Shown piece after piece: positions 3,452 to 59,516 of a DNA stretch of 64,000 nt. Each line of letters starts with the position of its first letter. Within the stretch, counting starts at the first letter, position 1. A program made the translations under genes and the position numbers. The stretch lies in NCBI GenBank assembly GCA_028706745.1, contig JAQTVM010000007.1:7008-71007 (forward strand). Reading direction: 5' to 3'. The DNA comes from Candidatus Nanoarchaeia archaeon. Lineage in GTDB: Archaea > Nanobdellota > Nanobdellia > SCGC-AAA011-G17 > GW2011-AR17. A model generated the notes under the pieces. It was given only the letters and a program-made list of their open reading frames with translations. It made no database searches and had not been told where the DNA came from.

Positions 3452-4804
3452 CTAATAATATATCCTTTCCTCTATCGGCTCAAGTGGATAATCCTCGCCC
3501 CTTACCCTTCTGAAGGCAATAAGAAGCCCGACAATAATCAGGATTACAACAAGCCCTATGAAGATTATCTTAAGAGTGTCATCCTCAAGCGAAAAGAAGC
3601 TCTTCTTAACCTCAGGCTCTTCAACGCCGAGCGAAAGCGACAATTCCTTGTAAAGCTTGTCTCCGTTCATTACCCTTAGTGTAAACTGGCTGACCTTCAG
3701 CTCTGCATCTGACTTGGGCTTTGCATAAACATAAACATCCGCCTTCTGCCCGCCCTCGATTGTAAGGGTGCTTGGGTCAATCCTTATGTCAGCAAACAAT
3801 TGCGCGCCTGCCGCTGACAATGTAATGTCCCTTGATTCTGATGCGAGGTTTGAAATTGTAAGCTTGTATGCTGTTTCCCTGCCTATTGCAATGTGCTGAG
3901 ACATTGTGTCAAAAGCAAGCGTAAGCTCCTTTGAAGGGTCAACAGGCTTTGTTTCAATTACAGGAATCTGCGCTCCTTCTTCTTCTTCTTCAACAGCCTC
4001 TGCTTTTGCTTCAACGCCTCTTATGTTTATTGTTGTCCTGACAACCTGTGTATCGCGCTCGTTATTGTATGCAATTCCAACCTCAAGCTCGTATTCTCCT
4101 GAAGCTGCATCTTTTGGAATTGGAAGGTATAAAATTGCTGTCTCGCTGTCTTCCTCATCATCGCCCGGAATCTCGGTTTCAACAAGCTCTATCCACTCAA
4201 CATCATAAACCTTCAGCTTGTCAATTGCAGCAACAACCTTTACATTGTTCTCGTCCCTTGCGCCAATATTCTGAAGCCTTACCTTGACAGTCGCTGTCTG
4301 CCCTGCCTCAACATAAGGTGTTGGAACAACAACACCCTTTATTTCAAGAAGGTGTCTTGAAGGTATTACATTCAAGTTAAGCTGTGTCTCGACAGTAGGC
4401 TCGTTAGCGCTTACTACACGAATAGACAATTTGTAATCTCCTTCCTCCAAATCATTTGGAAGCTCAAGTTCAAGCGTTCTTTGGTATCTTGTCCCCGGAA
4501 TTCCGGGCCTGAGGGTAAACATGCCTGAAGAAACGCGGACATCTTCATCCCCTTCATATCCGCCGATTTCAGCCCAAATTTTTACATCGCATTCACTTGT
4601 AAGAGCTTCGTTTGTCAAAAGCTCAACGCTGATATCCAATGTTGTCCCTCTTTCAACAGAGATATAATCATTATATCCTGCGTTTGAAATGTCATTCACA
4701 GTTACATCGCTAATCCAGAAACCGGATGCGCTTGCTGATACTGCGAAAGCAGATACTATCGCGGCTAAACATAATACCATCATGGCTATTTTTGATTTAT
4801 TCAT
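3452..4804 (-). CDS. secreted cell-surface protein with C-terminal membrane anchor (CARDB/Ig-like repeats likely)
   Basis: 450 aa; N-terminal signal peptide MNKSKIAMMVLCLAAIVSAFAVSASA; acidic linker EEEEEG; C-terminal TM IIFIGLVVILIIVGLLIAF followed by RRVRGED. Confidence 0.7.
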   Translation of the reverse strand: MNKSKIAMMVLCLAAIVSAFAVSASASGFWISDVTVNDISNAGYNDYISVERGTTLDISVELLTNEALTSECDVKIWAEIGGYEGDEDVRVSSGMFTLRPGIPGTRYQRTLELELPNDLEEGDYKLSIRVVSANEPTVETQLNLNVIPSRHLLEIKGVVVPTPYVEAGQTATVKVRLQNIGARDENNVKVVAAIDKLKVYDVEWIELVETEIPGDDEEDSETAILYLPIPKDAASGEYELEVGIAYNNERDTQVVRTTINIRGVEAKAEAVEEEEEGAQIPVIETKPVDPSKELTLAFDTMSQHIAIGRETAYKLTISNLASESRDITLSAAGAQLFADIRIDPSTLTIEGGQKADVYVYAKPKSDAELKVSQFTLRVMNGDKLYKELSLSLGVEEPEVKKSFFSLEDDTLKIIFIGLVVILIIVGLLIAFRRVRGEDYPLEPIEERIYY

Positions 4805-10461: not shown

Positions 10462-10658
10462 GATTGGTTTTGTTTAGAATTAAATCCTATTTAAAGCTAT
10501 CTAAGGAAAATTCCATGTTAACACTGCTCAGAGATGTCGCAAACTTTAAATATCATTTCGCACATAAAAATCAGAGCGCAAAAGAACCGCAAGGAACGAT
10601 TGCGCAAAAGTGGGAGGGCGTTCTTTGTTCCTGAGGGGCGTTCTCACCCATTTTTTTC

Positions 10659-19954: not shown

Positions 19955-21058
19955 TTAATCCAGTAAGCAGTCGTATTTTCCCTCAAACAAGTCACTGTAA
20001 ATCCTGTTTCCGTGCTTGAACTCAGCTATTTCAACCATTGATGCGCCGCAGAAATAATTGAAGTTGGAGGATTTTTCCATTTTCTCTTTCGACTCATTCA
20101 TATCAAGGGCAAAAGGGTGATAAGCCCATAATTGCAGGTCCTGTCCAAAGCACCTGCAGAGCATTGCAAATGATTTAAGAGAACGGCGGTATCTTTCCAT
20201 GGAGGCGTATGCTGCAAGCTCCGTGTGCTGAGTTATTTCGTGCATTTTCATTATTTTTGCAGCAGCAGCGGTTGCAATGCCTTCTTCAAGAAAAGATACA
20301 TCCGTGGAAAATCCTGACTTGAATCGCATGTTATGAGTGTATTCGTGAAACACTATGGATACTGCGCTCGCGCTCCATTCAGGAGAAACATATATCTTGT
20401 CTGAAATATCAGGAGGAATTGCAAATCCGGCTGTATTTCTCAAACGCAGGTAAGAAGCAGCGAATGCAGCGGCTGAAAATGCAGCTGCAGGTATTGCGCC
20501 GGCCGCAGCTGATAATGCAATGCCGGCGCCTGCGGCAAGTGAAAAGCCCGAAACTATTGCACCTAGAACAAAAGCAGCGCCAATGACAGGCTTTACAAGC
20601 TCGTATGCAACCATTGGTTTTGATTCCATAACCTTAATCTCAGGCTCTTTCAAAAGAGAGATTCCTGTTAACTCATTGAAAAAAGGCTTTGCATTGGAAA
20701 GAATGCCTGCATATTCCTCTTTTGTTCTTACCATATAAGCCGGAAGAGAAGAATAAAGCATTCTTTCAAGGCGATTATAATTCTTCAATGTGCCTATTAA
20801 CGATTCCCCTGCGTTTTGGTAAGGCTCATTGTTTCTTGCTCCTGAAAGCAAGTATCCGGCATCATTGAACTCATCAAAAGCAAACCTTGCGAGATACTCG
20901 AGGTTATTTGGATTTTTAACAAAATTTTGCTTCAGAAGCTTTGCTTTTTTTTCGCATTCTTTCAGGCGCTTCTTAAGAGCCCTCAATTCCCCTTTTTCCA
21001 TGCAATAAGGTATTGATTCGGATATTATAAATGCTTCTAAAATTGCCATATTCCGCAA
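19955..21058 (-). CDS. membrane-associated HEXXH zincin-like protein
   Basis: 367 aa; poly-Ala/Gly TM region then IVFHEYTHNMRF (HEXXH). Confidence 0.6.
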   Translation of the reverse strand: MRNMAILEAFIISESIPYCMEKGELRALKKRLKECEKKAKLLKQNFVKNPNNLEYLARFAFDEFNDAGYLLSGARNNEPYQNAGESLIGTLKNYNRLERMLYSSLPAYMVRTKEEYAGILSNAKPFFNELTGISLLKEPEIKVMESKPMVAYELVKPVIGAAFVLGAIVSGFSLAAGAGIALSAAAGAIPAAAFSAAAFAASYLRLRNTAGFAIPPDISDKIYVSPEWSASAVSIVFHEYTHNMRFKSGFSTDVSFLEEGIATAAAAKIMKMHEITQHTELAAYASMERYRRSLKSFAMLCRCFGQDLQLWAYHPFALDMNESKEKMEKSSNFNYFCGASMVEIAEFKHGNRIYSDLFEGKYDCLLD

Positions 21059-21120
21059 TTATTTCCACAATAATCAATAAAAACCTATATAAATGGGTTG
21101 CTATTACAATAAACCATTAA

Positions 21121-21243
21121 CCCGCCTTAGCTCAGTGGTGGAGCACACGGCTGTAGAAAATGTGCGACAAGGCAATGATTGCCATGGATGATACACATTC
21201 AGCCGAACCCGTGAGGTCGCCGGTTCGAGTCCGGCAGGCGGGA
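21121..21243 (+). tRNA. tRNA-Tyr (anticodon GTA) with an ~50-nt anticodon-loop intron
   Basis: CCCGCCT acceptor with C1:G72 (archaeal Tyr identity), D-arm TAGCTCAGTGGTGGAGCA, anticodon stem CACGG…CCGTG with CTGTAG then inserted sequence before CCGTG, T-arm GCCGGTTCGAGTCCGGC, 3' AGGCGGGA. Confidence 0.7.
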
Positions 21244-47145: not shown

Positions 47146-48279
47146 ATGAACGGAAATGTCCATATTGGAAAATTGTTCGGCATTAAGATAAACCTGCATT
47201 ACACATGGTTCCTTGTGTTCTTTTTGCTTGCGTGGGCTCTTTCCTCAGGATATTTTCCAGAAAGATTGCCTGGCAAAGAGGCTTATGTCTACGGCATATT
47301 AGGGGCTCTTGCATCACTGCTTCTTTTTGCGTCTGTCCTGCTACACGAATTAAGCCACAGCCTTGTTGCATTGAAGAACAAGATAAAGGTAAGCAGCATT
47401 ACCCTGTTTTTCTTTGGAGGCGTTGCGCAGGTAAATGAGGACAATTTTACCCCGAATAAAGAGCTGAAGGTTGCAATTGCAGGGCCCATTATGAGCTTAT
47501 TCCTTGGAGGATTGTTTTTTGCGCTTTCAAAATTTTCAGGAGTTTACATCGGGGCTGTTTTTGGATATTTGGCGTTTGTTAATCTTATCCTTGGCGGATT
47601 TAACCTCGTTCCGGGATTTCCATTGGACGGCGGACGGGTGCTAAGAGCGATATTATGGAAGAAGTGGGGCGACATAAACAGGGCAACCTATGTTGCTGCA
47701 GAAGGCGGCAAGATGTTTGCAATATTCCTCATTATAATAGGCGTATTAGGAATATTTTTCGGAAGAATTGACCTCTGGTACATACTGCTTGGATTATTCC
47801 TTTATTCAATCGCAAAAAACAGCTACAAGCAGACTGTTGTAAGCAACATTCTGAAAGAATCAAAAGTCAAGGAATACATGCAGACAAAGTACAAGGCGCT
47901 TGACGCTTCAATGCCTGTTTCAGGGTTTGATTTCAAGAAATTAATGAGCTATGACCAGTGGGTTTATCCTGTATTGTCAGGCAAGAAGGTTATCGGCGTT
48001 GCACTGCAGCAGCAGATTGAAAAAGCAAAGGCTGCTGACGGAACAAGGAAGATTCTTGAGGTCACAATACCCATCCACAAGATAAAATCAGTTTCTCCCG
48101 AGGACACCTGCATAAAAGCATATGAGCTTATGATTATGCAGAGGATTGAGTTATTGCCTGTAATTGCAAATGGCAAAGTGGCGGGCGTAATAAAGGCAGC
48201 CACGCTGAATGAGCTTTTCAGCATGGCGGCTGTGAAGGCAGACGCTGAAAACAAGGCAAAAAGAAAGATTAAGCAATAG
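47146..48279 (+). CDS. site-2 protease (M50) with C-terminal CBS domains
   Basis: 377 aa; HELSHS zinc motif in a TM helix, LDGG motif, tandem CBS-like C-terminus. Confidence 0.8.
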   Translation: MNGNVHIGKLFGIKINLHYTWFLVFFLLAWALSSGYFPERLPGKEAYVYGILGALASLLLFASVLLHELSHSLVALKNKIKVSSITLFFFGGVAQVNEDNFTPNKELKVAIAGPIMSLFLGGLFFALSKFSGVYIGAVFGYLAFVNLILGGFNLVPGFPLDGGRVLRAILWKKWGDINRATYVAAEGGKMFAIFLIIIGVLGIFFGRIDLWYILLGLFLYSIAKNSYKQTVVSNILKESKVKEYMQTKYKALDASMPVSGFDFKKLMSYDQWVYPVLSGKKVIGVALQQQIEKAKAADGTRKILEVTIPIHKIKSVSPEDTCIKAYELMIMQRIELLPVIANGKVAGVIKAATLNELFSMAAVKADAENKAKRKIKQ

Positions 48280-48317
48280 AAAAGCTTTTAAAAGAGGTGT
48301 CTTTATAATTTCTGAAT

Positions 48318-48390
48318 GCTCCGGTAGCTCAGTCGGTAGAGCGCACGGCTGTTAACCGTGCGGTCACAGGTTCGAGTCCTGTCCGGGGCG
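48318..48390 (+). tRNA. tRNA-Asn (anticodon GTT)
   Basis: GCTCCGG acceptor, D-arm TAGCTCAGTCGGTAGAGC, anticodon stem CACGG/CCGTG loop CTGTTAA, T-arm ACAGGTTCGAGTCCTGT. Confidence 0.85.
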
Positions 48391-48397
48391 TTTTAAT

Positions 48398-48492
48398 GGG
48401 CCTTTAGCTTAGCCTGGCTAGAGCACTCGACTGATATCAAGCATGGCTTGGAAGAAATCGAGAGGTCGCGGGTTCGAATCCCGTAGGGCCCA
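48398..48492 (+). tRNA. tRNA-Ile (anticodon GAT) with an ~20-nt anticodon-loop intron
   Basis: GGGCCTT acceptor, anticodon stem CTCGA…TCGAG with CTGATA then inserted sequence, T-arm GCGGGTTCGAATCCCGT, 3' AGGGCCCA. Confidence 0.7.
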
Positions 48493-48572
48493 TTTCTTAA
48501 TTTTAATTGCTTGAAATAAAAATAGAGATTAGCAAACAGGATAGCCCTGCGGGTATGAACGCAGTGAATACA

Positions 48573-48640
48573 CCCGTAGGGCCCATCAGGGGACTGCGGT
48601 CGCAAACATAGTGACTCCGACCGTAGGACCCATTTTTTTC
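48573..48640 (+). repeat. two tandem degenerate copies of the tRNA-Ile T-arm plus 3' acceptor half (…CCCGTAGGGCCCA / …CCGTAGGACCCA) ending in a T7 run
   Basis: exact 13-mer CCCGTAGGGCCCA of the tRNA-Ile 3' end recurs at 48573-48586 and a 2-mismatch version at 48621-48633; each is preceded by a T-stem-like complement. Confidence 0.5.
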
Positions 48641-48957
48641 GTCCTATATTCTGCAGTATACAAATGCTTTTAAAACAACAATCCATTCCTTACTTGAAAA
48701 AAGGTGTGAAAAGCCCGAACTATAAACCATGTATTCTAGAAAGGCAAGAACTAATCGAGCCAAAGAATACCCCCAAGTTTGGGCTCACAAATCCTTGAGG
48801 CGCGAAAAGCCCAGCCAGACCTGAGTCTCGCCATTGAAATGGAAAGAGGCAAAGAGCTTCGGCTCAATCAGTTTTGTTTGGGCTCGCAGGGCCATTATGG
48901 GCGCGCAGGAGTTTTAAGCATAATTCTTATAAAGAGATGAAAGATTACAAAAGTGCC

Positions 48958-49992
48958 ATGAAAACAGCAATATATTACAATAACAGTGATGTTAGAAACG
49001 AGGAAATGCCTGTTCCTGACATTTCAGATGATGAGATTCTTTTCAAGACAATAGCTTCAGGCATCTGCGGAAGCGACTTGATGGAATGGTACAGGATTAA
49101 GAAAGCGCCCTTAGTTTTGGGGCACGAGGTTGCGGGCATAGTTGAAAAAAAAGGAAAGAATGTTACTGATTTTGATGAAGGCGAGAAAGTTTTCGTGACG
49201 CATCACGTGCCTTGCGGCTCCTGCAAGTACTGTAAAAATGGCAATGACACTGCGTGCGACACTTTAAGAAAAACAAACTTCTATCCGGGCGGATTCTCTG
49301 AATACATCCGGATTCCTGCAATTAACATTGAAAAGGGGATGCTTAATCTCCCCTCAAACGTGGGATTTGAGGAAGGAACATTTATTGAGCCATTGGGATG
49401 TGCTGTAAGGGGGCAAAAGAGGCTGGGAATAAAACAGGATGATTCGCTTCTTGTAATGGGATGCGGGCCTGCAGGAATACTTCACATAAAACTGGCAAAG
49501 GCAAAAGGTGTAAAAAAAATAATGGCAACTGACATAAATCCTTACAGGATCCAATTGGCAAGGCTAAACAGCGCAATACCCATTCATGCGCTTGACGATG
49601 TGCATTCAATACTAAAATACAGGCTTAACGGAGAGCTTGCTGACAAGGTAATTGTATGCACAGGAGCCCTTCCTGCAGCAAAGCAGGCATTCAATTGCGT
49701 TGACAGGGGAGGAACTGTATTGTATTTTGCAGTTCCGCGCCCTGACGAGGATGTTGTTGCGCCTTTGAACGAATTCTGGAAAGACGAAAAGACGATTGCA
49801 TTTTCATACGGCGCAGGAATGCGAGACAATAAGGAAGCCTTGGAATTGATTGCCTCAGGCTCAGTTGACATAAGGGACATGATTACGCACAGGCTGCCTT
49901 TGGAAAAAGCAAAGGAAGGGTTCAGAATTGCTTCAAAAGAAATGGATGCAATGAAAGTCATATTTTACCCGCACGGAATTACAAAGGATTGA
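48958..49992 (+). CDS. zinc-dependent alcohol/threonine dehydrogenase family (MDR)
   Basis: GHEVAG catalytic-zinc motif, structural-zinc Cys cluster CGSCKYCKNGNDTAC, Rossmann GCGPAG; start chosen at the internal MKTAIYY (track ORF starts 48874). Confidence 0.8.
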   Translation: MKTAIYYNNSDVRNEEMPVPDISDDEILFKTIASGICGSDLMEWYRIKKAPLVLGHEVAGIVEKKGKNVTDFDEGEKVFVTHHVPCGSCKYCKNGNDTACDTLRKTNFYPGGFSEYIRIPAINIEKGMLNLPSNVGFEEGTFIEPLGCAVRGQKRLGIKQDDSLLVMGCGPAGILHIKLAKAKGVKKIMATDINPYRIQLARLNSAIPIHALDDVHSILKYRLNGELADKVIVCTGALPAAKQAFNCVDRGGTVLYFAVPRPDEDVVAPLNEFWKDEKTIAFSYGAGMRDNKEALELIASGSVDIRDMITHRLPLEKAKEGFRIASKEMDAMKVIFYPHGITKD

Positions 49993-54546: not shown

Positions 54547-56694
54547 TCAGCTTACCTTGCTTCCCTCAGCAATGTCATTCTCCACTGTTAATAGCCCTAA
54601 CTTTTCATTCTCTGAAGCGGCTAGCAGCATTCCGTTGCTTTCAATGCCTCTCAGGACTACTGGTTGCAAGTTTGTTATGACTATAATCTTCTTTCCCAGA
54701 ATCTTTTCAATAGGATAATGCTTTCTTATGCCTGCGACAATCTGCCTTTCTTCCATGCATTTCCCGAAGTTGACTAATAAGACGACTAATTTGTCTGCGT
54801 TCGGATGAGGCTGTGCTTTCACGACTTTCCCGACTCTTATGTCCATTTTTGCGAATTCGTCATAGCTGACGTGGTTGCATGCAGGGCATGCTTTTAACTG
54901 CACTGACGCCGGTTCCTTGTGTTCTTTAGGATGTTCTTGTTTCATCTTATTTTCCTCCTTGTTCATCATGCTTCTTTCTTCAAGCGGATGTCCGCTTTGC
55001 TTGTCAATTGGCTTGACTTCCTTTGTTAATCGCTCTTTGAAGTATTCAGTGACTTTTGAAGTTTTTGTTTTAAGCTCTTCCATTTCCTTGTCTTCTAATT
55101 TATGGAAGAGAAGCTCTATTTTGTTTAATTTCTGGTTTGGCTTGACTTGCAGTTTATTTATTTTTTTCCAGTCCTTGTCTTTGGCGTTAAGCATCTTAAG
55201 TATTTTTTCTGAAGTTTGGGGCAGGAACGGCTGGACTAGCAAGGCTATCATTCTTGACATGTTTGCGCAGACGTACAAGACGTTCTTTGACTTTTCCGGC
55301 ACTTTCCACGGCTCGTTGTCCTGGAAATACTTGTTTGCCATTGCTGACAGTCTCATTGTTTCTTCCAAAGCGCTTCTTAACTCAACTCTTTCAAAGGCGG
55401 CTTTTATGACTTCTATTTGCTTTTCAACCTGCTTTAGGAAGGTTTTGTCTGCTTTTGTTAAAACTGCCTTGGGGACTTTGTTGCCGTATTTGCTTACTAT
55501 GAATGTCAGTGAGCGGTTGACGAAGTTCCCAAGATTGCCTACCAGCTCGTTGTTTATCTTGTCCTGGAAGTCTTTCCAGTAGAACTCAGTGTCTTTTGTC
55601 TCCGGTATGAGGAATGTCAGATAATATCTCCAGTAGTCAGGGCTTAAGCCGGTGGATGCAAGGTTTTCGCAGAAAACTCCCCATTTTTGGCTTTTTGAAA
55701 ACTTGCGCCCCTCAAAGTTAAGGTACTGCTGCCCGACTACATTATATGGCAGATTAAATTTTCCGTTAGCCATAATCATGGCCGGAAAAAATATTGTATG
55801 GAAAGGTATGTTATCCTTGCCCAGAAAATTATATATCCTTGCATTCTTGTCCTGCCAGAAGAGCTTCCACTTTGTCTTGTTCCACTCCTTTGTTGATGAA
55901 ATATAGCCAATCGGGGCATCAACCCAGACGTAATAGACTAAGTCTTCAAAGCCCTTAAACTGCACAGGCACTCCCCACTTGAGGTTTCTTGTAATGCACC
56001 TTGGCTTTAATCCCTCATTAATCCAGCCCAAAGCCAGGCTTCTTACCTGCTGCCTCCAGTGCTTGTTGCCTTTAATCCACTTCTCCAGCTTTGGAGAAAG
56101 CTTTTCAAAGTCCAGGAAGAGGTGCTTTTTTTCCCTGAATTCAATGTTTTTTGAATTGCAGATTGCACAGTAAGGGTTCTTCAGCTTTTCAGGGTCAAGC
56201 ATTGTGCTGCAGCTCTCGCACTGGTCGCCCCTTGCCTTATCGTATCCGCAGTTTGGGCAGGTTCCTTCTATGTAACGGTCGGAAAGTTGTCTCCTGCATT
56301 CGTTGCAGAAGGGCAGTGAAATGGTTTTTTCTATTATATAGCCATTCTTGTATATCTGGGCCATGAAGTCCTGGGTTGTCTTGTAGTGTATCGGCTTGCT
56401 TGTTCTTGAGAAGTTGTCATAGCTGATGTTAAACCAGTCGTATATACCCTTATGAAGCTTAAAGTAGAAGTCGCAGAGCTCCTTGGGGGTAATGCCATAC
56501 TTGCTTGCAGCTATTTCACTTGCTGTCCCGTGCTCGTCTGTGCCGCCAATGAAGACAGTTTGAAAGCCTTGTAATCTGCAGTATCTTGCGAAGATGTCAG
56601 CCGGCAGCTGAGAGCCCGCTATATGCCCCAGATGGGGAAGATTATTCGTATAGGGCAGTGCACATGTTATGAGACGCCTTTCCTTATTTTTCAT
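54547..56694 (-). CDS. metG: methionyl-tRNA synthetase with C-terminal tRNA-binding (EMAP/Trbp111-like) domain
   Basis: 715 aa; HIGH motif PYTNNLPHLGH, KMSKS motif KFSKS, zinc knuckles CPNC…CESC, C-terminal OB-fold tRNA-binding domain. Confidence 0.9.
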   Translation of the reverse strand: MKNKERRLITCALPYTNNLPHLGHIAGSQLPADIFARYCRLQGFQTVFIGGTDEHGTASEIAASKYGITPKELCDFYFKLHKGIYDWFNISYDNFSRTSKPIHYKTTQDFMAQIYKNGYIIEKTISLPFCNECRRQLSDRYIEGTCPNCGYDKARGDQCESCSTMLDPEKLKNPYCAICNSKNIEFREKKHLFLDFEKLSPKLEKWIKGNKHWRQQVRSLALGWINEGLKPRCITRNLKWGVPVQFKGFEDLVYYVWVDAPIGYISSTKEWNKTKWKLFWQDKNARIYNFLGKDNIPFHTIFFPAMIMANGKFNLPYNVVGQQYLNFEGRKFSKSQKWGVFCENLASTGLSPDYWRYYLTFLIPETKDTEFYWKDFQDKINNELVGNLGNFVNRSLTFIVSKYGNKVPKAVLTKADKTFLKQVEKQIEVIKAAFERVELRSALEETMRLSAMANKYFQDNEPWKVPEKSKNVLYVCANMSRMIALLVQPFLPQTSEKILKMLNAKDKDWKKINKLQVKPNQKLNKIELLFHKLEDKEMEELKTKTSKVTEYFKERLTKEVKPIDKQSGHPLEERSMMNKEENKMKQEHPKEHKEPASVQLKACPACNHVSYDEFAKMDIRVGKVVKAQPHPNADKLVVLLVNFGKCMEERQIVAGIRKHYPIEKILGKKIIVITNLQPVVLRGIESNGMLLAASENEKLGLLTVENDIAEGSKVS
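56375..56446. repeat. 72-nt core shared 71/72 with 59200-59271 (inside metG codons ~84-107)
   Basis: direct comparison of the two metG 5' copies: flanks ~75-80% identical with many synonymous differences, core essentially identical. Confidence 0.7.
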
Positions 56695-58356: not shown

Positions 58357-59067
58357 ATGTGCACATTTGGCATCAAGCTAACTGATAAAAGAAGGTATAT
58401 TTTTAAGAACTTAGATGTTCATAAAGTTATTTTCAGCTATTCTTTGCCTATAATAGACAAGAATGTATTGAAATTCTACATCCCGGGAAAAAATGGCATC
58501 TGGACAGGCATAAACCGGAAAGGCCTGCTTATCCAGACTGCAGAGCATACTGGCAATTTAATCTCAAAATGCAAGATTAACACATGGCCTATTTTTGAAA
58601 GAATGCTTGAGCATTGCAATGATACATATTCAGGTTTGGCATTTCTTATGAGCCGGTTTAAAGAGGCCAAAATGGACCTGCCTGGAAGCATCCTGCTGTC
58701 TGACAGGAATACGTCCATCATAGCAGAGTACTATCCCTCTGTATGGGGCATTAAAATAATAGATGATTGTGATGCAAGAGCAGGGATTTTTGGAGTATTA
58801 ACATCCTTCAATAAAAAGCCCAAGCCTGACAGGGCGCATCTTGCTGTCCGATTAATGTCCAAAATAAAAGATAAAAATGCAGTTGACAGCTTAAAGGCAT
58901 TATGCAGAAAGCATAACATGAAGAATTCTATTTGCCGGCATAAAGGTCCTAATACCAATGGTTCTATCATAATGGATATTTCAGAAAAAGCTGCAATAAT
59001 ACATTATGTTCTTAACAGCCATCCCTGTAAATCTGAGTATAAAAGAATAGTATTTGAATTATACTAG
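58357..59067 (+). CDS. Ntn-hydrolase (C45/choloylglycine-hydrolase-like) with N-terminal Cys nucleophile
   Basis: 236 aa beginning MCTFG… (Cys2 exposed after Met removal, as in Ntn acyl/peptide hydrolases); starts 1 nt after the peptide stop. Confidence 0.55.
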   Translation: MCTFGIKLTDKRRYIFKNLDVHKVIFSYSLPIIDKNVLKFYIPGKNGIWTGINRKGLLIQTAEHTGNLISKCKINTWPIFERMLEHCNDTYSGLAFLMSRFKEAKMDLPGSILLSDRNTSIIAEYYPSVWGIKIIDDCDARAGIFGVLTSFNKKPKPDRAHLAVRLMSKIKDKNAVDSLKALCRKHNMKNSICRHKGPNTNGSIIMDISEKAAIIHYVLNSHPCKSEYKRIVFELY

Positions 59068-59516
59068 TTATTGCAGTTGGGGCAGGTTCCTTCTATGTAC
59101 CTGTCTGATAACTGCCTTTTGCATTCATTGCAGAAGGGAAGGGAGATGCTTTTTTCTATTATATAGCCGTTTTTGTGTATTTTTGCTATTACTTCCTGTG
59201 TTGTCTTGTAGTGTATTGGCTTGCTTGTTCTTGAGAAGTTGTCATAGCTGATGTTAAACCAGTCGTATATATCTTTATGTATCTTGTAGTAGAAATCACA
59301 TAATTCTCTGGGAGTAATGCCGTATTTCTGCGCAGCTATCTCGCTTGCAGTGCCATGCTCATCTGTTCCGCCTATGAAGATGGTTTGATATCCTTGCAGT
59401 CTGTTGTATCTGGCGAAGATGTCAGCTGGGAGATGAGAGCCTACGATGTTTCCTAAGTGTGGTACGTTGTTAGTGTAAGGAAGTGCGGATGTGATTAATC
59501 TTCTTTCCTTAGTCAT
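59064..59516 (-). pseudogene. 5'-terminal 150-codon duplicate of metG (truncated MetRS fragment)
   Basis: MTKERRLITSALPYTNNVPHLGN… about 80% identical to MetRS aa 1-148, ends TCPNCNN*, abutting the convergent hydrolase stop. Confidence 0.7.
59200..59271. repeat. second copy of the 72-nt metG core (see 56375-56446)
   Basis: 71/72 identity. Confidence 0.7.

Follow-up and report, generated by a model that had tools for sequence, protein, structure and literature searches.

Downstream of tRNA-Ile(GAU) in the window, the whole 64,000-nucleotide stretch of archaeal DNA that was analysed, lie two consecutive hairpin modules, A and B, each of which ends in a copy of the 3' end of that tRNA. They belong to a small repeat family whose members are seen nowhere but directly behind tRNAs with the 3' end ...CCGTAGGGCCCA. 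The best explanation, which we put forward tentatively and at somewhat less than an even chance, is that the two copies behind the tRNA are hairpin modules in tandem that mimic a tRNA, from a recombination-prone family that would act in cis on the tRNA transcript. Judged by the way close relatives gain, lose and swap the modules, the site is a local hotspot of recombination and not just a collection of decayed integration scars. As to function, we infer that the modules are probably co-transcribed tRNA-like structures for processing or termination. The features of the locus are the following, in coordinates of the window.

48281-48293, + strand: putative promoter of the tRNA-Asn/tRNA-Ile unit, AAAAGCTTTTAAAA, assigned by consensus and position only
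48318-48390, + strand: tRNA-Asn(GUU) (Rfam tRNA, 71.2 bits; ARAGORN)
48398-48492, + strand: tRNA-Ile(GAU) (Rfam tRNA, 57.6 bits; 21-nt insert in the anticodon loop), with exon 1 at 48398-48436, a canonical 37/38 intron of 20 nt at 48437-48456 and exon 2 at 48457-48492
48480-48492, + strand: core repeat copy 0, positions 61-73 of tRNA-Ile, CCCGTAGGGCCCA
48493-48543, + strand: spacer D1, the first ~30 nt of which are homologous to the native tRNA-Ile 3' flank of hairpin-less relatives
48544-48585, + strand: hairpin module A, with 5' strand (48544-48554), apical part (48555-48571), 3' strand (48572-48582) and unpaired CCA (48583-48585), ending in core copy 1 (48573-48585)
48586-48588, + strand: TCA linker from core copy 1 to hairpin B; the junction CCCA-TCA-GGG is also found in L003, L021 and L026
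48589-48632, + strand: hairpin module B, ending in core copy 2 (48620-48632, two mismatches)
48633-48639, + strand: T7 run that closes the array, resembling the archaeal oligo-T terminator signal, a role predicted from its sequence
48645-48675, + strand: promoter region of the next RNA gene, TATATTCTGCAG...GCTTTTAAAA, present in every syntenic locus and forming the right-hand anchor of the variable segment

The putative promoter of the tRNA-Asn/tRNA-Ile unit is kept in all syntenic loci. Its TATA 8-mer ends 24 nt upstream of tRNA-Asn; at tRNA-Val, at tRNA-Tyr and at the ncRNA further downstream the spacing is likewise 24-27 nt. The intron limits of tRNA-Ile(GAU), a gene that is mis-called when ARAGORN is used alone, were set against an intron-less orthologue in L002. 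The 13-mer CCCGTAGGGCCCA at the end of this tRNA occurs exactly at 48480-48492 and 48573-48585, and ACCGTAGGACCCA, which differs from it at two positions, lies at 48620-48632 and is followed by the T7 run. Both recurrences had been noticed in a sequence-only reading of the window, with coordinates off by one. Allowing up to two mismatches, the 13-mer has four matches in the 64-kb window against 0.48 expected, a number reached in 1 of 100 shuffles, and three of the four fall inside 153 nt. By arithmetic, ~1e-6 occurrences of an exact 13-mer repeat within 100 nt are expected. A and B together are detected as a tandem repeat with a 40-nt unit, a period of 47 and 70% identity. No copies of their own ends were found downstream of the tRNAs for Val, Tyr and Asn in the window.

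In each module the 3' end of tRNA-Ile is present twice, first inverted and then, after an irregular apical extension, in direct orientation as the 12-13-nt core. A forms an 11-bp stem (GCCCTGCGGGT/ACCCGTAGGGC; -21.0 kcal/mol, z -3.9, 0 of 200 shuffles as good) in a helix register that leaves CCA unpaired. The stem of B has 9 bp, then a tandem G.A/A.G, then 3 bp (-23.1 kcal/mol, z -4.4). The T-stem-like complements GCGGGT/ACCCGT and CGGTCG/CGACCG, which the sequence-only reading had pointed out, are real, and the pairing extends beyond them. In B, GGG, the tandem G.A/A.G and CU make up an acceptor-like stem, UCG extends a T-stem-like GCGG, the apical part is 15 nt long and a discriminator-like A is present. 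This fold mirrors the acceptor stem of tRNA-Ile at G1-G3/C70-C72 and U7-A66, with the discriminator A, and its T-stem at G49.U65, C50-G64, G51-C63 and G52-C62; the tandem G.A/A.G of the window's B falls at 4-5:68-69. In the B module of L003 the paired strands are GGGACCU/AGGGCCC, with A.G as the single mismatch, and GCGG/CCGU, after which an A follows. The predicted fold thus shows B as a minihelix, with acceptor stem and T-stem stacked, but without D-arm, anticodon arm and T-loop. A reproduces these stems as well, in its own register.

The T-loop is the part of the T-arm that was not copied. The consensus UUCRANY is not present in the modules, in which the tRNA-Ile T-loop TTCGAAT is replaced by unrelated apical parts of 15-17 nt, AUGAACGCAGUGAAUAC and CAAACAUAGUGACUC. 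What is shared with the tRNA are 12-13 nt and a T-stem strand of 4-6 nt, the contiguous identity being 13 nt in A and 11 of 13 in B. The earlier description of the copies as T-arm copies therefore holds for the T-stem strand and the acceptor 3' end, but not for the T-loop. Enzymes acting on tRNAs often contact the T-loop, and its absence counts against a model in which the modules are processing signals. B folds better on the + strand than on the - strand (-23.1 vs -16.2 kcal/mol), and B types in general favour the + strand. A-type modules fold about equally on both strands, so that an RNA-level role of A is no more than possible. Also counting against the cis-acting model, A lacks a conserved promoter at the set spacing of the other RNA genes.

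Other structural identities were considered and rejected. K-turn/K-loop, C/D-box and H/ACA interpretations of the apical GA motifs were found on inspection to be unfit in bulge and strand order, and a K-turn-type reading of the tandem G.A is also opposed by a third module variant, X, which has G-C pairs in its place. Read as the decayed remains of intron and 3' exon, B shows no significant similarity to them (z 0.1-1.9), and a comparison of the A-B block with a whole tRNA gave nothing significant upstream of the A core, beyond the core itself. An Rfam search at E<=10 over 48200-49000 returned only the two tRNAs as real hits and others at chance level.

It is highly unlikely, in our view, that the modules are trans-acting small-RNA genes whose products would be free minihelix RNAs (CCA-tailed or charged), enzyme decoys or tRNA halves of a split gene. 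Such products would account for the acceptor and T-stem mimicry, including G1-G3:C70-C72 and A73, and for the unpaired CCA at the end of A; minihelices are known as substrates of archaeal tRNA enzymes, and in the window A is preceded, at a distance of 20-23 nt, by an AT-rich stretch that is TATA-like. However, this stretch is not conserved in L005 and L004 and is off the 24-27-nt spacing, B and X abut tRNA-Ile directly, and the hairpins are left unscored by the Rfam tRNA model at E<=10. The split-tRNA version, which the sequence-only reading had offered as its alternative, fails on anatomy: there is no anticodon-stem strand, variable region, T-loop, complementary leader or 5'-half partner.

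We built a covariance model of the family (R1). In the 64-kb window it scores A with 66 bits and B with 57.1 bits, and the next independent match, the hairpins' own reverse strand aside, reaches 10.5 bits. Among the loci of relatives, L003, L004, L005, L006, L021 and L026 each give a single module match, always directly behind tRNA-Ile. Stem changes between A and B are compensatory (G-C to U-A and U-A to C-G, or the reverse), and in X the G.A/A.G is turned into G-C/G-C. Paired cells make up 73.8% of the alignment in register, as compared with 28-38% when the partners are slid by 1-3 columns, and the covariation score is 0.170 vs 0.091 in shuffles (1 of 500), a value that comes from only six sequences of three types. 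Template switching in DNA palindromes can also yield concerted stem changes of this kind. Conservation as one structured ncRNA with compensatory changes had been named beforehand as the observation that would contradict integration scars; compensatory changes are what we find, but in separable modules and not in a single ncRNA. The orthologues of A are 41/42 (L004) and 38/42 (L005) identical to it, while the neighbouring protease has only 74% amino acid identity between the window and L004 genomes and the spacer beside A can be aligned between window and L004 only with gaps. The B orthologues of L003 and L026 are 35/44 identical to the window's B, and that of L021 carries a 50-nt insert in its apical loop, so that the length of the hairpin centre varies from 15 to 65 nt (65 in L021).

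Relatives were gathered via homologue look-ups; a protease-based synteny scan of GTDB genomes gave none. Their syntenic loci contain 0, 1 or 2 modules, always right behind tRNA-Ile and with boundaries at the 12-13-nt repeat. The close relatives L001, L002, L008 and L013 lack modules altogether, and on this sequence comparison the modules are dispensable. In L003, L021 and L026 the tRNA-TCA-B junction is the same as the window's A-TCA-B junction. In L004, A ends in GGACCCA, the core variant of the window's B, and native flank follows. L004 is also the only locus in which the duplication of spacer and native flank is directly visible, with flank on either side of A; an ancestral array such as we propose below implies this duplication, and its restriction to L004 counts against that model. 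Within an array the terminal core is always the most degenerate (GGACCCA, AAGGCTCA or GGGTCCA). The first ~30 nt of the spacer in front of A resemble native flank: in alignments judged against composition-preserving shuffles, D1 of the window matches the flank of L013 with z 3.8, D1 of L004 matches the same flank with z 5.4, and D1 of the window and of L005 are identical at 41 of 51 positions (z 11.8). In the window as in L005, ~50 nt separate the tRNA from the hairpin block, which has no core at its left junction.

An exchange of alleles is suggested by L003 and L004, two strains with ~99.9% identity in the flanks. Upstream of the variable segment the two differ at 2 positions in ~1377 nt, and downstream they are 100% identical. 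In between, they differ in intron and module type and, over the 60 nt that follow the core, by ~6 SNPs, and identity resumes at the promoter region TATATTCTGCAG...GCTTTTAAAA that corresponds to 48645-48675. Other changes also meet at the tRNA end. L006 and L021 have a 252-aa ORF directly behind the repeat, a second and divergent tRNA-Ile is present in L006, and in L010 foreign DNA that includes a DUF2080 'transposon-encoded' gene abuts the tRNA end. The tRNA-Ile 3' end had been proposed as an integration hotspot, and a comparison of syntenic regions for elements beside it had been suggested. This proposal is borne out in part: the 3' side of tRNA-Ile is a hotspot of rearrangement and insertion (0-2 modules, ORF, second tRNA-Ile, foreign DNA, strain swap), and an ORF and foreign DNA do occupy the junction in relatives, but no integrase was found in the loci.

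These observations can be joined into a model of local recombination. Every module ends in the core of the tRNA, and recombination between cores can therefore duplicate, delete or reshuffle modules; we propose that this is how the modules are gained, lost and rearranged. The window has the fullest array, tRNA-flank-A-B, although which state is ancestral is deduced from the comparison, and core-to-core deletions of such an array would give the states of the relatives: B only, A only with a B-type core, or none. Whole alleles would be exchanged between strains by homologous recombination, with the tRNA exons and the downstream promoter as anchors. At the RNA level, the modules would be transcribed within the tRNA-Asn/tRNA-Ile unit. 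They might then act in cis like the Haloferax t-elements, as a structure for tRNase Z and the CCA-adding enzyme; they might punctuate or terminate the tRNA transcript, with the T7 after B; and they might also cap the 5' end of the downstream RNA. In favour of co-transcription, B and X abut tRNA-Ile in L003, L006, L021 and L026 and there is no T-run between them, and the ORF that comes next in L006 and L021 has no promoter-like box at the usual spacing. In L004 and L005, A sits behind runs of T5/T6, and read-through into A should therefore stop. On the 3' side, B of the window is followed directly by T7, and its loop is above the limit of a simple terminator scan, which left B uncalled. A is followed by TCA and B, and the last modules of relatives by TTCTTAC, TATATAT or an ORF.

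A functionless origin of the same structures has to be weighed against this model of cis-acting, recombining modules. The tRNA 3' end and its flank would have been duplicated in tandem, and template switching or slippage would then have produced quasi-palindromes as a neutral by-product. The flank on both sides of A in L004, the easy loss of modules in many relatives, the degeneracy of the terminal core of each array and the lack of strand asymmetry in A-type modules are what one would expect from such a process. We nevertheless consider it decidedly unlikely, given that A is 41/42 identical where the spacer has diverged beyond gap-free alignment, that the apical motif AAC..AGTGA is common to A and B despite the remodelled stem, and that a B-like hairpin is found in L023, a distant marine archaeon. 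Moreover, the block upstream of the core in A has no detectable tRNA likeness, and simple duplication therefore leaves its 5' strand and loop unexplained.

In L023, at least four near-identical tandem units of 94 nt lie behind tRNA-Lys(CUU), the last 29 nt of which are the same as those of tRNA-Ile. The L023 hairpin resembles B outside the core (z 3.1-3.5; 3-10 of 2000 shuffles), a modest likeness and one of several comparisons, and it is confined to the hairpin part, as the whole 93-94-nt unit of the window does not match L023 significantly (z 1-2.2). Taken at the level of sequence, a B-like hairpin behind a different tRNA points to mobility over a purely local origin. The ORFs of L023 look housekeeping-like by eye.

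The sequence-only reading had seen in the copies the scars of repeated integration and excision at a tRNA attachment site. In its fuller form, elements would have integrated site-specifically and repeatedly at tRNAs ending in CCGTAGGGCCCA, duplicating the core each time and leaving tiny attP-proximal hairpin remnants that could be amplified or deleted at the cores. We regard this as possible but rather doubtful. Each unit is delimited by direct repeats of the tRNA end, presence and copy number are polymorphic even between near-identical strains, and cargo-like ORFs, the second tRNA-Ile and the DUF2080 DNA lie exactly at the core (L006, L021, L010). The tandem units of L023, B-like outside the core, fit as well, with the caveat that the likeness is modest and one of several comparisons, and partial tRNA copies from successive integrations are an established paradigm (PMC9897764; bioRxiv 10.1101/2020.12.28.424599).

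An att scar is a contiguous tRNA 3' block, typically ~40 bp long and including the T-loop. Occupied and empty sites are both found here, but not a block of ~40 bp, an integrase or its remnants, or foreign DNA between the copies: the tRNA and A are separated by a 51-nt spacer whose first ~30 nt are native-like (z 3.8-5.4), and A and B by 3 nt. The identity block, 12-13 nt plus the 4-6-nt T-stem strand, compares with ~40-44 bp in documented archaeal cases and skips the T-loop. Every copy is paired with an inverted copy, compensatory changes are seen among A, B and X, and A is 41/42 identical between genomes whose proteases are 74% identical. In addition, units of 47-94 bp are too small for double-stranded circles, and in the window and L005 the left junction has no core. 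Pfam detected neither an integrase nor a transposase in 66 ORFs across the 64-kb window, every ORF of at least 150 aa included, and the precomputed Pfam lists of loci L001-L013 show none; no tyrosine or serine integrase, transposase or Cas1 was found in the scanned window ORFs or in the loci. The sole recombinase-like signal is a marginal Resolvase-domain match in a TrmB-like ORF 37 kb away. Comparisons with mobile DNA gave nothing of relevance: a 22-mer of the tRNA end matched in IMG/VR only one bacteriophage tRNA cluster, which is irrelevant, the fixed-length hairpin pattern CTGCGG..AAC..AGTGA..CCGTA had 0 matches there, and 48493-48640 had no blastn match among phages and plasmids. In GTDB representatives the same pattern hit only the L004 contig, besides four chance bacterial matches.

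The 252-aa ORF bears on the integration reading and on a further one. It has no Pfam or PHROG match, and in L006 and L021 no promoter-like box stands at the usual 24-27 nt before it. That the hairpin travels with this ORF was rejected, as 21 homologues lie in unrelated contexts without tRNA or hairpin; elsewhere the homologues are ordinary chromosomal genes, which also weakens the case for cargo. The hairpins could in principle be single-strand DNA recombination sites like the attC sites of integrons, which when folded would imitate the tRNA end in its double-stranded form and serve to insert promoter-less cassettes behind a strongly transcribed tRNA operon. Their imperfect pairing, conserved stem ends and variable centre (15 to 65 nt) would suit this, as would the promoter-less ORF directly behind the hairpin in L006 and L021, and integrons have been reported from Archaea (PMC9668308). 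We give this very little credence: the hairpins have no RYYYAAC/GTTRRRY boxes, no IntI-like gene is found in window or loci, and the one cassette family has homologues elsewhere without hairpins.

Finally, the family might be a previously undescribed miniature module that goes with, or targets, tRNA genes ending in ...CCGTAGGGCCCA, given its occurrence behind tRNA-Ile in this Nanoarchaeia lineage and, in at least four tandem units, behind tRNA-Lys in a marine archaeon. It would be either a mobile mini-element specific for tRNA ends or a naturally encoded, expressed minihelix by which promoter-less genes are carried on a tRNA operon. This is unlikely as we judge it. The fold would then copy the minihelix because the machinery that propagates or processes the module reads that shape.

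The tRNA ends repeated here are conserved hairpins that imitate the half of a tRNA read by end-processing enzymes, and not passive debris, and the stretch that begins at the intron of the tRNA and runs to the final repeat appears swapped between otherwise identical strains. The 3' ends of tRNAs are classic landing sites of mobile DNA, and to our knowledge almost nothing is known about tRNA-end integration in DPANN archaea. If mobile, the modules would be a new miniature element specific for tRNA ends. For annotation, the locus warns against taking a partial tRNA match downstream of a tRNA as a sure sign of a prophage or island.

Among known systems, split tRNA genes resemble the array in that a partial tRNA 3' sequence is encoded separately in a nanoarchaeal-type genome. 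The 3' half in Nanoarchaeum equitans covers positions 38-73 and has an intact T-arm and a leader complementary to the 5'-half gene; here there is no 38-73 span, T-arm or complementary leader, and an intact tRNA-Ile adjoins. In Pyrococcus yayanosii, PYG1 is flanked by 44-bp repeats, a case of displaced partial tRNA copies at an integration hotspot (PMC9897764), and successive integrations of Prochlorococcus tycheposons leave partial tRNAs and remnants (bioRxiv 10.1101/2020.12.28.424599). Our locus shares with them an intact tRNA that is followed by direct repeats of its 3' end, several of them in a row, as well as strain variation and, in relatives, accessory genes at the junction. It differs in the 12-13-nt repeat, the skipped T-loop, the lack of an integrase or element body and the units of 47-94 nt, and moreover in that each copy is one half of a hairpin with an inverted copy, a hairpin in which stem changes are compensatory and which is better conserved than its flanks. 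With integron attC sites and CALINs, reported in Archaea (PMC9668308), it has in common imperfect hairpins that bound a row of small units behind a fixed site, and a promoter-less ORF follows in two relatives, but there is no R/L box consensus, integron integrase or multi-cassette array.

A structural parallel to B is the RNA minihelix. It consists of an acceptor stem on a T-arm and is the minimal substrate of aminoacyl-tRNA synthetases, the CCA-adding enzyme, RNase P and tRNase Z; the AlaRS of N. equitans is reportedly one example. Like a minihelix, B has a 7-bp acceptor-like stem continuous with a T-stem and a discriminator base; unlike it, B has a loop other than a T-loop and a mismatch at position 4:69. 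The minihelices that we know of were made in the laboratory or proposed as evolutionary hypotheses, and none is a repeat in a genome. Should the modules work as tRNA mimics, they would provide natural cases of a structure that has long been a model of primitive tRNA. The closest model for a possible function of the hairpins are the t-elements of Haloferax volcanii (Hoelzle et al., 2008, 2012), described as tRNA-like, cis-acting signals for cleavage by tRNase Z and RNase P (PMC4326828), which are likewise short tRNA-like structures beside stable-RNA genes. In contrast to t-elements, the modules have no T-loop or cloverleaf, are copies of the end of the neighbouring tRNA, occur in tandem and can be dispensed with among close relatives. 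As functional mimics, they would be a DPANN counterpart of the haloarchaeal t-elements.

The tRNA-Ile(GAU) gene of the window is followed by two tandem hairpin modules, A and B, each of which ends in a copy of the last 12-13 nt of the tRNA (the core). The window is from an uncultured DPANN archaeon, and the site-2 protease beside the modules is 100% identical to a protein recorded for a Candidatus Nanoarchaeia archaeon. The locus is organised as follows:

47146-48279, site-2 protease; upstream of it topoisomerase VI B/A and a PIN toxin-antitoxin pair
48318-48390, tRNA-Asn, with a promoter in front
48398-48492, tRNA-Ile(GAU), with a canonical 20-nt intron at 48437-48456
between tRNA-Ile and hairpin A, a 51-nt spacer
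48544-48585, hairpin A, then a TCA linker
48589-48632, hairpin B, with T7 directly behind
3' of T7, a second promoter, a structured RNA without Rfam match and an alcohol dehydrogenase gene

The intron limits were set by comparison with the intron-less orthologue in the relative L002; ARAGORN puts the intron in the wrong place. The core CCCGTAGGGCCCA occurs without mismatch at 48480-92 and 48573-85, and 48620-32 carries a variant, ACCGTAGGACCCA; across the window there are four matches with at most two mismatches, compared to 0.48 expected. The recurrence of this 13-mer downstream of tRNA-Ile, reported in the sequence-only reading, is therefore real, with coordinates that had to be shifted by one base, and the T7 behind the last copy is present as described. 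The T-stem complements are also there, yet each copy is more than the partner of a short complement: it forms the entire 3' strand of a stable hairpin. Copies of this kind were not found downstream of the other tRNAs of the window, and when six modules were combined into a covariance model, it detected no additional ones, neither across the 64-kb window nor at other places in the comparison loci.

The 116-nt region folds with -46.8 kcal/mol (z -3.9), hairpin A alone with -21.0 (z -3.9) and hairpin B alone with -23.1 (z -4.4). In B the 5' strand GGGGACU-GCGG pairs with CCGU-AGGACCC, followed by an A; in its orthologue in the relative L003, GGGACCU-GCGG stands against CCGU-AGGGCCC-A. This pairing rebuilds the acceptor stem of tRNA-Ile (7 bp, GGGCCUU/AGGGCCC) in a stack with the T-stem, plus the discriminator: a 'minihelix' without D-arm, anticodon arm and T-loop. 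The register of hairpin A leaves CCA unpaired. In Rfam, the hairpins match neither tRNA nor any other family. The alternative that they are tRNA halves, or pseudogenes, is rejected: the modules have no significant similarity to the remaining tRNA or to its intron.

Syntenic loci were found through homologues of the protease (53-81% amino-acid identity), and further loci by a metagenome scan with the last 29 nt of the tRNA. Behind tRNA-Ile they show the following states:

L001, L002, L008, L013: no module
L003, L026: B only; its junction to the tRNA, CCCA|TCA|GGG, is that between A and B in the window
L021: B with a 50-nt insert in the apical loop, then a 252-aa ORF
L004: spacer and A only; the core of A is GGACCCA, as in B of the window, and native flank follows
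L005: spacer and A only, core degenerate
L006, L007: a third variant, X, with B-like 5' strand, A-like apex and the tandem G.A pairs turned into G-C; behind it a frameshifted version of L021's ORF, then a second, divergent, intron-less tRNA-Ile
L010: at the tRNA end, DNA of foreign origin that contains a DUF2080 'transposon-encoded' gene; synteny lost

The original interpretation is thus supported in part, namely in that the 3' side of tRNA-Ile is a hotspot: module states, ORFs and foreign DNA all vary among relatives. The second tRNA-Ile(GAU) (L006 4631-4704, also in L007 and L024) has A1-U72 and C33; it lies at the right end of the insert with the two ORFs, immediately before the downstream promoter that is conserved. 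A reverse-transcriptase gene (RVT_1 + HTH_40, 432-630 aa) lies divergently beside the protease in three lineages (L002 1134-2432, L006 614-2293 and L010 549-2441, all on the minus strand), in the place taken by topoisomerase VI in the window; its occurrence does not correlate with that of the hairpins.

The stem is kept in A, B and X through double changes (G-C<->U-A, U-A<->C-G, G.A/A.G to G-C/G-C). In a sample of six sequences of only three types, 73.8% of cells pair, compared to 28-38% with the partners slid, and the covariation score is 0.170 versus 0.091 in shuffles. The window and L004 share 41 of the 42 nt of hairpin A, although their proteases are 74% identical and the adjacent spacers can be aligned only with gaps; in L005, A (38/42) is little better conserved than the spacer (41/51). 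B types prefer to fold as the plus strand, A-type modules fold equally on both. Template switching can make palindromes 'co-vary'. All in all, structural constraint on the hairpins is likely.

All unit boundaries fall at the end of the core. We infer an ancestral array tRNA - flank - A - B - flank, from which core-to-core deletion would yield every observed state. Over its first ~30 nt, the spacer before A is homologous to native flank sequence from relatives that have no hairpins (z 3.8-5.4), and in L004 native flank lies on both sides of A, which argues for local duplication and against an insertion of foreign DNA. L003 and L004 have identical proteases; upstream, 2 of ~1377 nt differ, and downstream the two agree throughout. 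What separates them, namely the intron type, the type of module and SNPs in the flank, is found from the first intron base to ~60 nt past the last core. Whole alleles of this short segment are therefore swapped between lineages, with anchors in the tRNA exons, which do not vary, and in the promoter conserved further downstream. Intron types (none, two of 20-22 nt, one of 42 nt) and module types assort independently. The introns are all at the canonical 37/38 site, and the two 20-22-nt types are unrelated (window, L002-L006, L008, L010, L013, L021, L026).

Integration scars, the first explanation proposed for the tRNA-end copies, are rejected in their simple att form. The block of identity with the tRNA is short and leaves out the T-loop, a scan of 66 ORFs across the window and the loci themselves yielded no integrase, viral, phage and plasmid collections (including IMG/VR) gave no counterpart of the hairpin region, and homologues of the 'cargo' ORF of L021 and L006 are ordinary chromosomal genes without hairpins. 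An integron is likewise rejected, as the hairpins have no attC boxes and IntI was not found. A mobile or integrative origin of the modules, which refines the original idea, is a possibility we consider somewhat less likely than the processing role described below. L023 is a marine archaeal contig whose tRNA-Lys(CUU) has its last 29 nt in common with tRNA-Ile and adjoins genes for ArgRS, Pth2 and NrdR, an ordinary chromosomal context. At least four near-identical 94-nt tandem units follow this tRNA (4331-4707), each ending in TTCCGTAGGGCCCA, the last 12 nt of tRNA-Lys, and the contig stops inside the array. Outside the core, their hairpin resembles B (GTCG.AAAC..TAG..TGACT; z 3.1-3.5; 3-10/2000 shuffles), a single example and one among several comparisons; entire units show no significant similarity to those of the window. 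Nothing else hints as clearly that the module may go with the sequence of the tRNA end and not with the locus, which would imply some mobility.

The structured RNA (48700-48900, plus strand; promoter 48667-48675; no Rfam match) occurs in every syntenic locus as one or two modules: module 1 (~48703-48789, GGTGTGAAAAGCCC...GGGCTCACA) only in the window, L001, L005 and L008, module 2 (~48797-48888) in all. RNAalifold on seven sequences gives 25 pairs, three with compensatory changes, and some relatives carry a long apical-loop insert. Variable structured modules of 80-200 nt, absent from the window, precede tRNA-Asn in its leader (L003 3957-4030, L004, L005, L026) or lie between both tRNAs (L008 4236-4361, L010 3883-4004); they have in common a GCGGGC...GCCCGC hairpin, then ...TGAT..., and a final small hairpin abutting the tRNA 5' end, and could be co-transcribed small RNAs. 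Double-hairpin inserts of ~50 nt with common CCGAAAAC...GTTTTCGA, between tRNA-Asn and tRNA-Ile in L026 (~2176-2226) and in the apical loop of hairpin B in L021 (reverse strand), resemble members of a small family of palindromic, MITE-like insertions in these genomes. Four RNA genes have a TATA box that can be recognised (tRNA-Val, 10462-10500; tRNA-Tyr, 21050-21120; tRNA-Asn, 48281-48317; structured RNA, 48660-48702), and in each of them the 8-mer ends 24-27 nt upstream of the mature 5' end, which suggests that tRNAs are transcribed near-leaderless, as has been described for Nanoarchaeum; the long tRNA-Asn leaders of relatives argue that 5' processing still exists. tRNA-Tyr(GUA) (21121-21243) has a 51-nt intron (21155-21205) containing GGATGATA ... 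TCAGCC, motifs that could be C/D-box-like. Finally, a 150-aa N-terminal MetRS fragment (59064-59516, minus strand) lies ~2.4 kb from full-length MetRS (54547-56694, minus strand), with a radical-SAM/SPASM gene and one further gene in between; it looks like a partial gene duplication from insertion next to metG.

We tentatively read A, B and X as tRNA-mimicking hairpin modules with a cis processing role; being bounded by the tRNA's own 3' end, they are recombinationally unstable. In L003, L006, L021 and L026 there is no T-run between tRNA-Ile and the module, and in L006 and L021 no promoter at the 24-27-nt spacing of RNA genes precedes the following ORF; the module and, in these two loci, the ORF are therefore very probably co-transcribed with the tRNAs. 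Haloarchaeal t-elements are cut by tRNase Z and RNase P (PMC4326828). By analogy, the module might be a second recognisable site for tRNA 3'-end enzymes, which would separate the tRNAs from the RNA downstream and leave the latter a stable 5' hairpin; in the window, B and T7 would close the transcription unit just ahead of the next promoter. For A, two things weaken the processing role: in L004 and L005 this hairpin has T5/T6 runs upstream, and no conserved promoter goes with it. Neutral, trans-acting or attC-like readings take up the weight that the processing role and a mobile or integrative origin leave. That the modules are tRNA-end-specific minihelices, either mobile or expressed, seems unlikely.

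Partial tRNA copies left by integrations are well known (PMC9897764; tycheposons, bioRxiv 10.1101/2020.12.28.424599). The modules resemble them in their tandem repeats, strain polymorphism and nearby accessory genes, but differ in hairpin architecture, small size, conservation and the absence of an element. Since the modules have no T-loop and their processing role is one that we infer, we do not assign them to t-elements or to laboratory minihelices, which are their closest functional and closest structural analogues, respectively.
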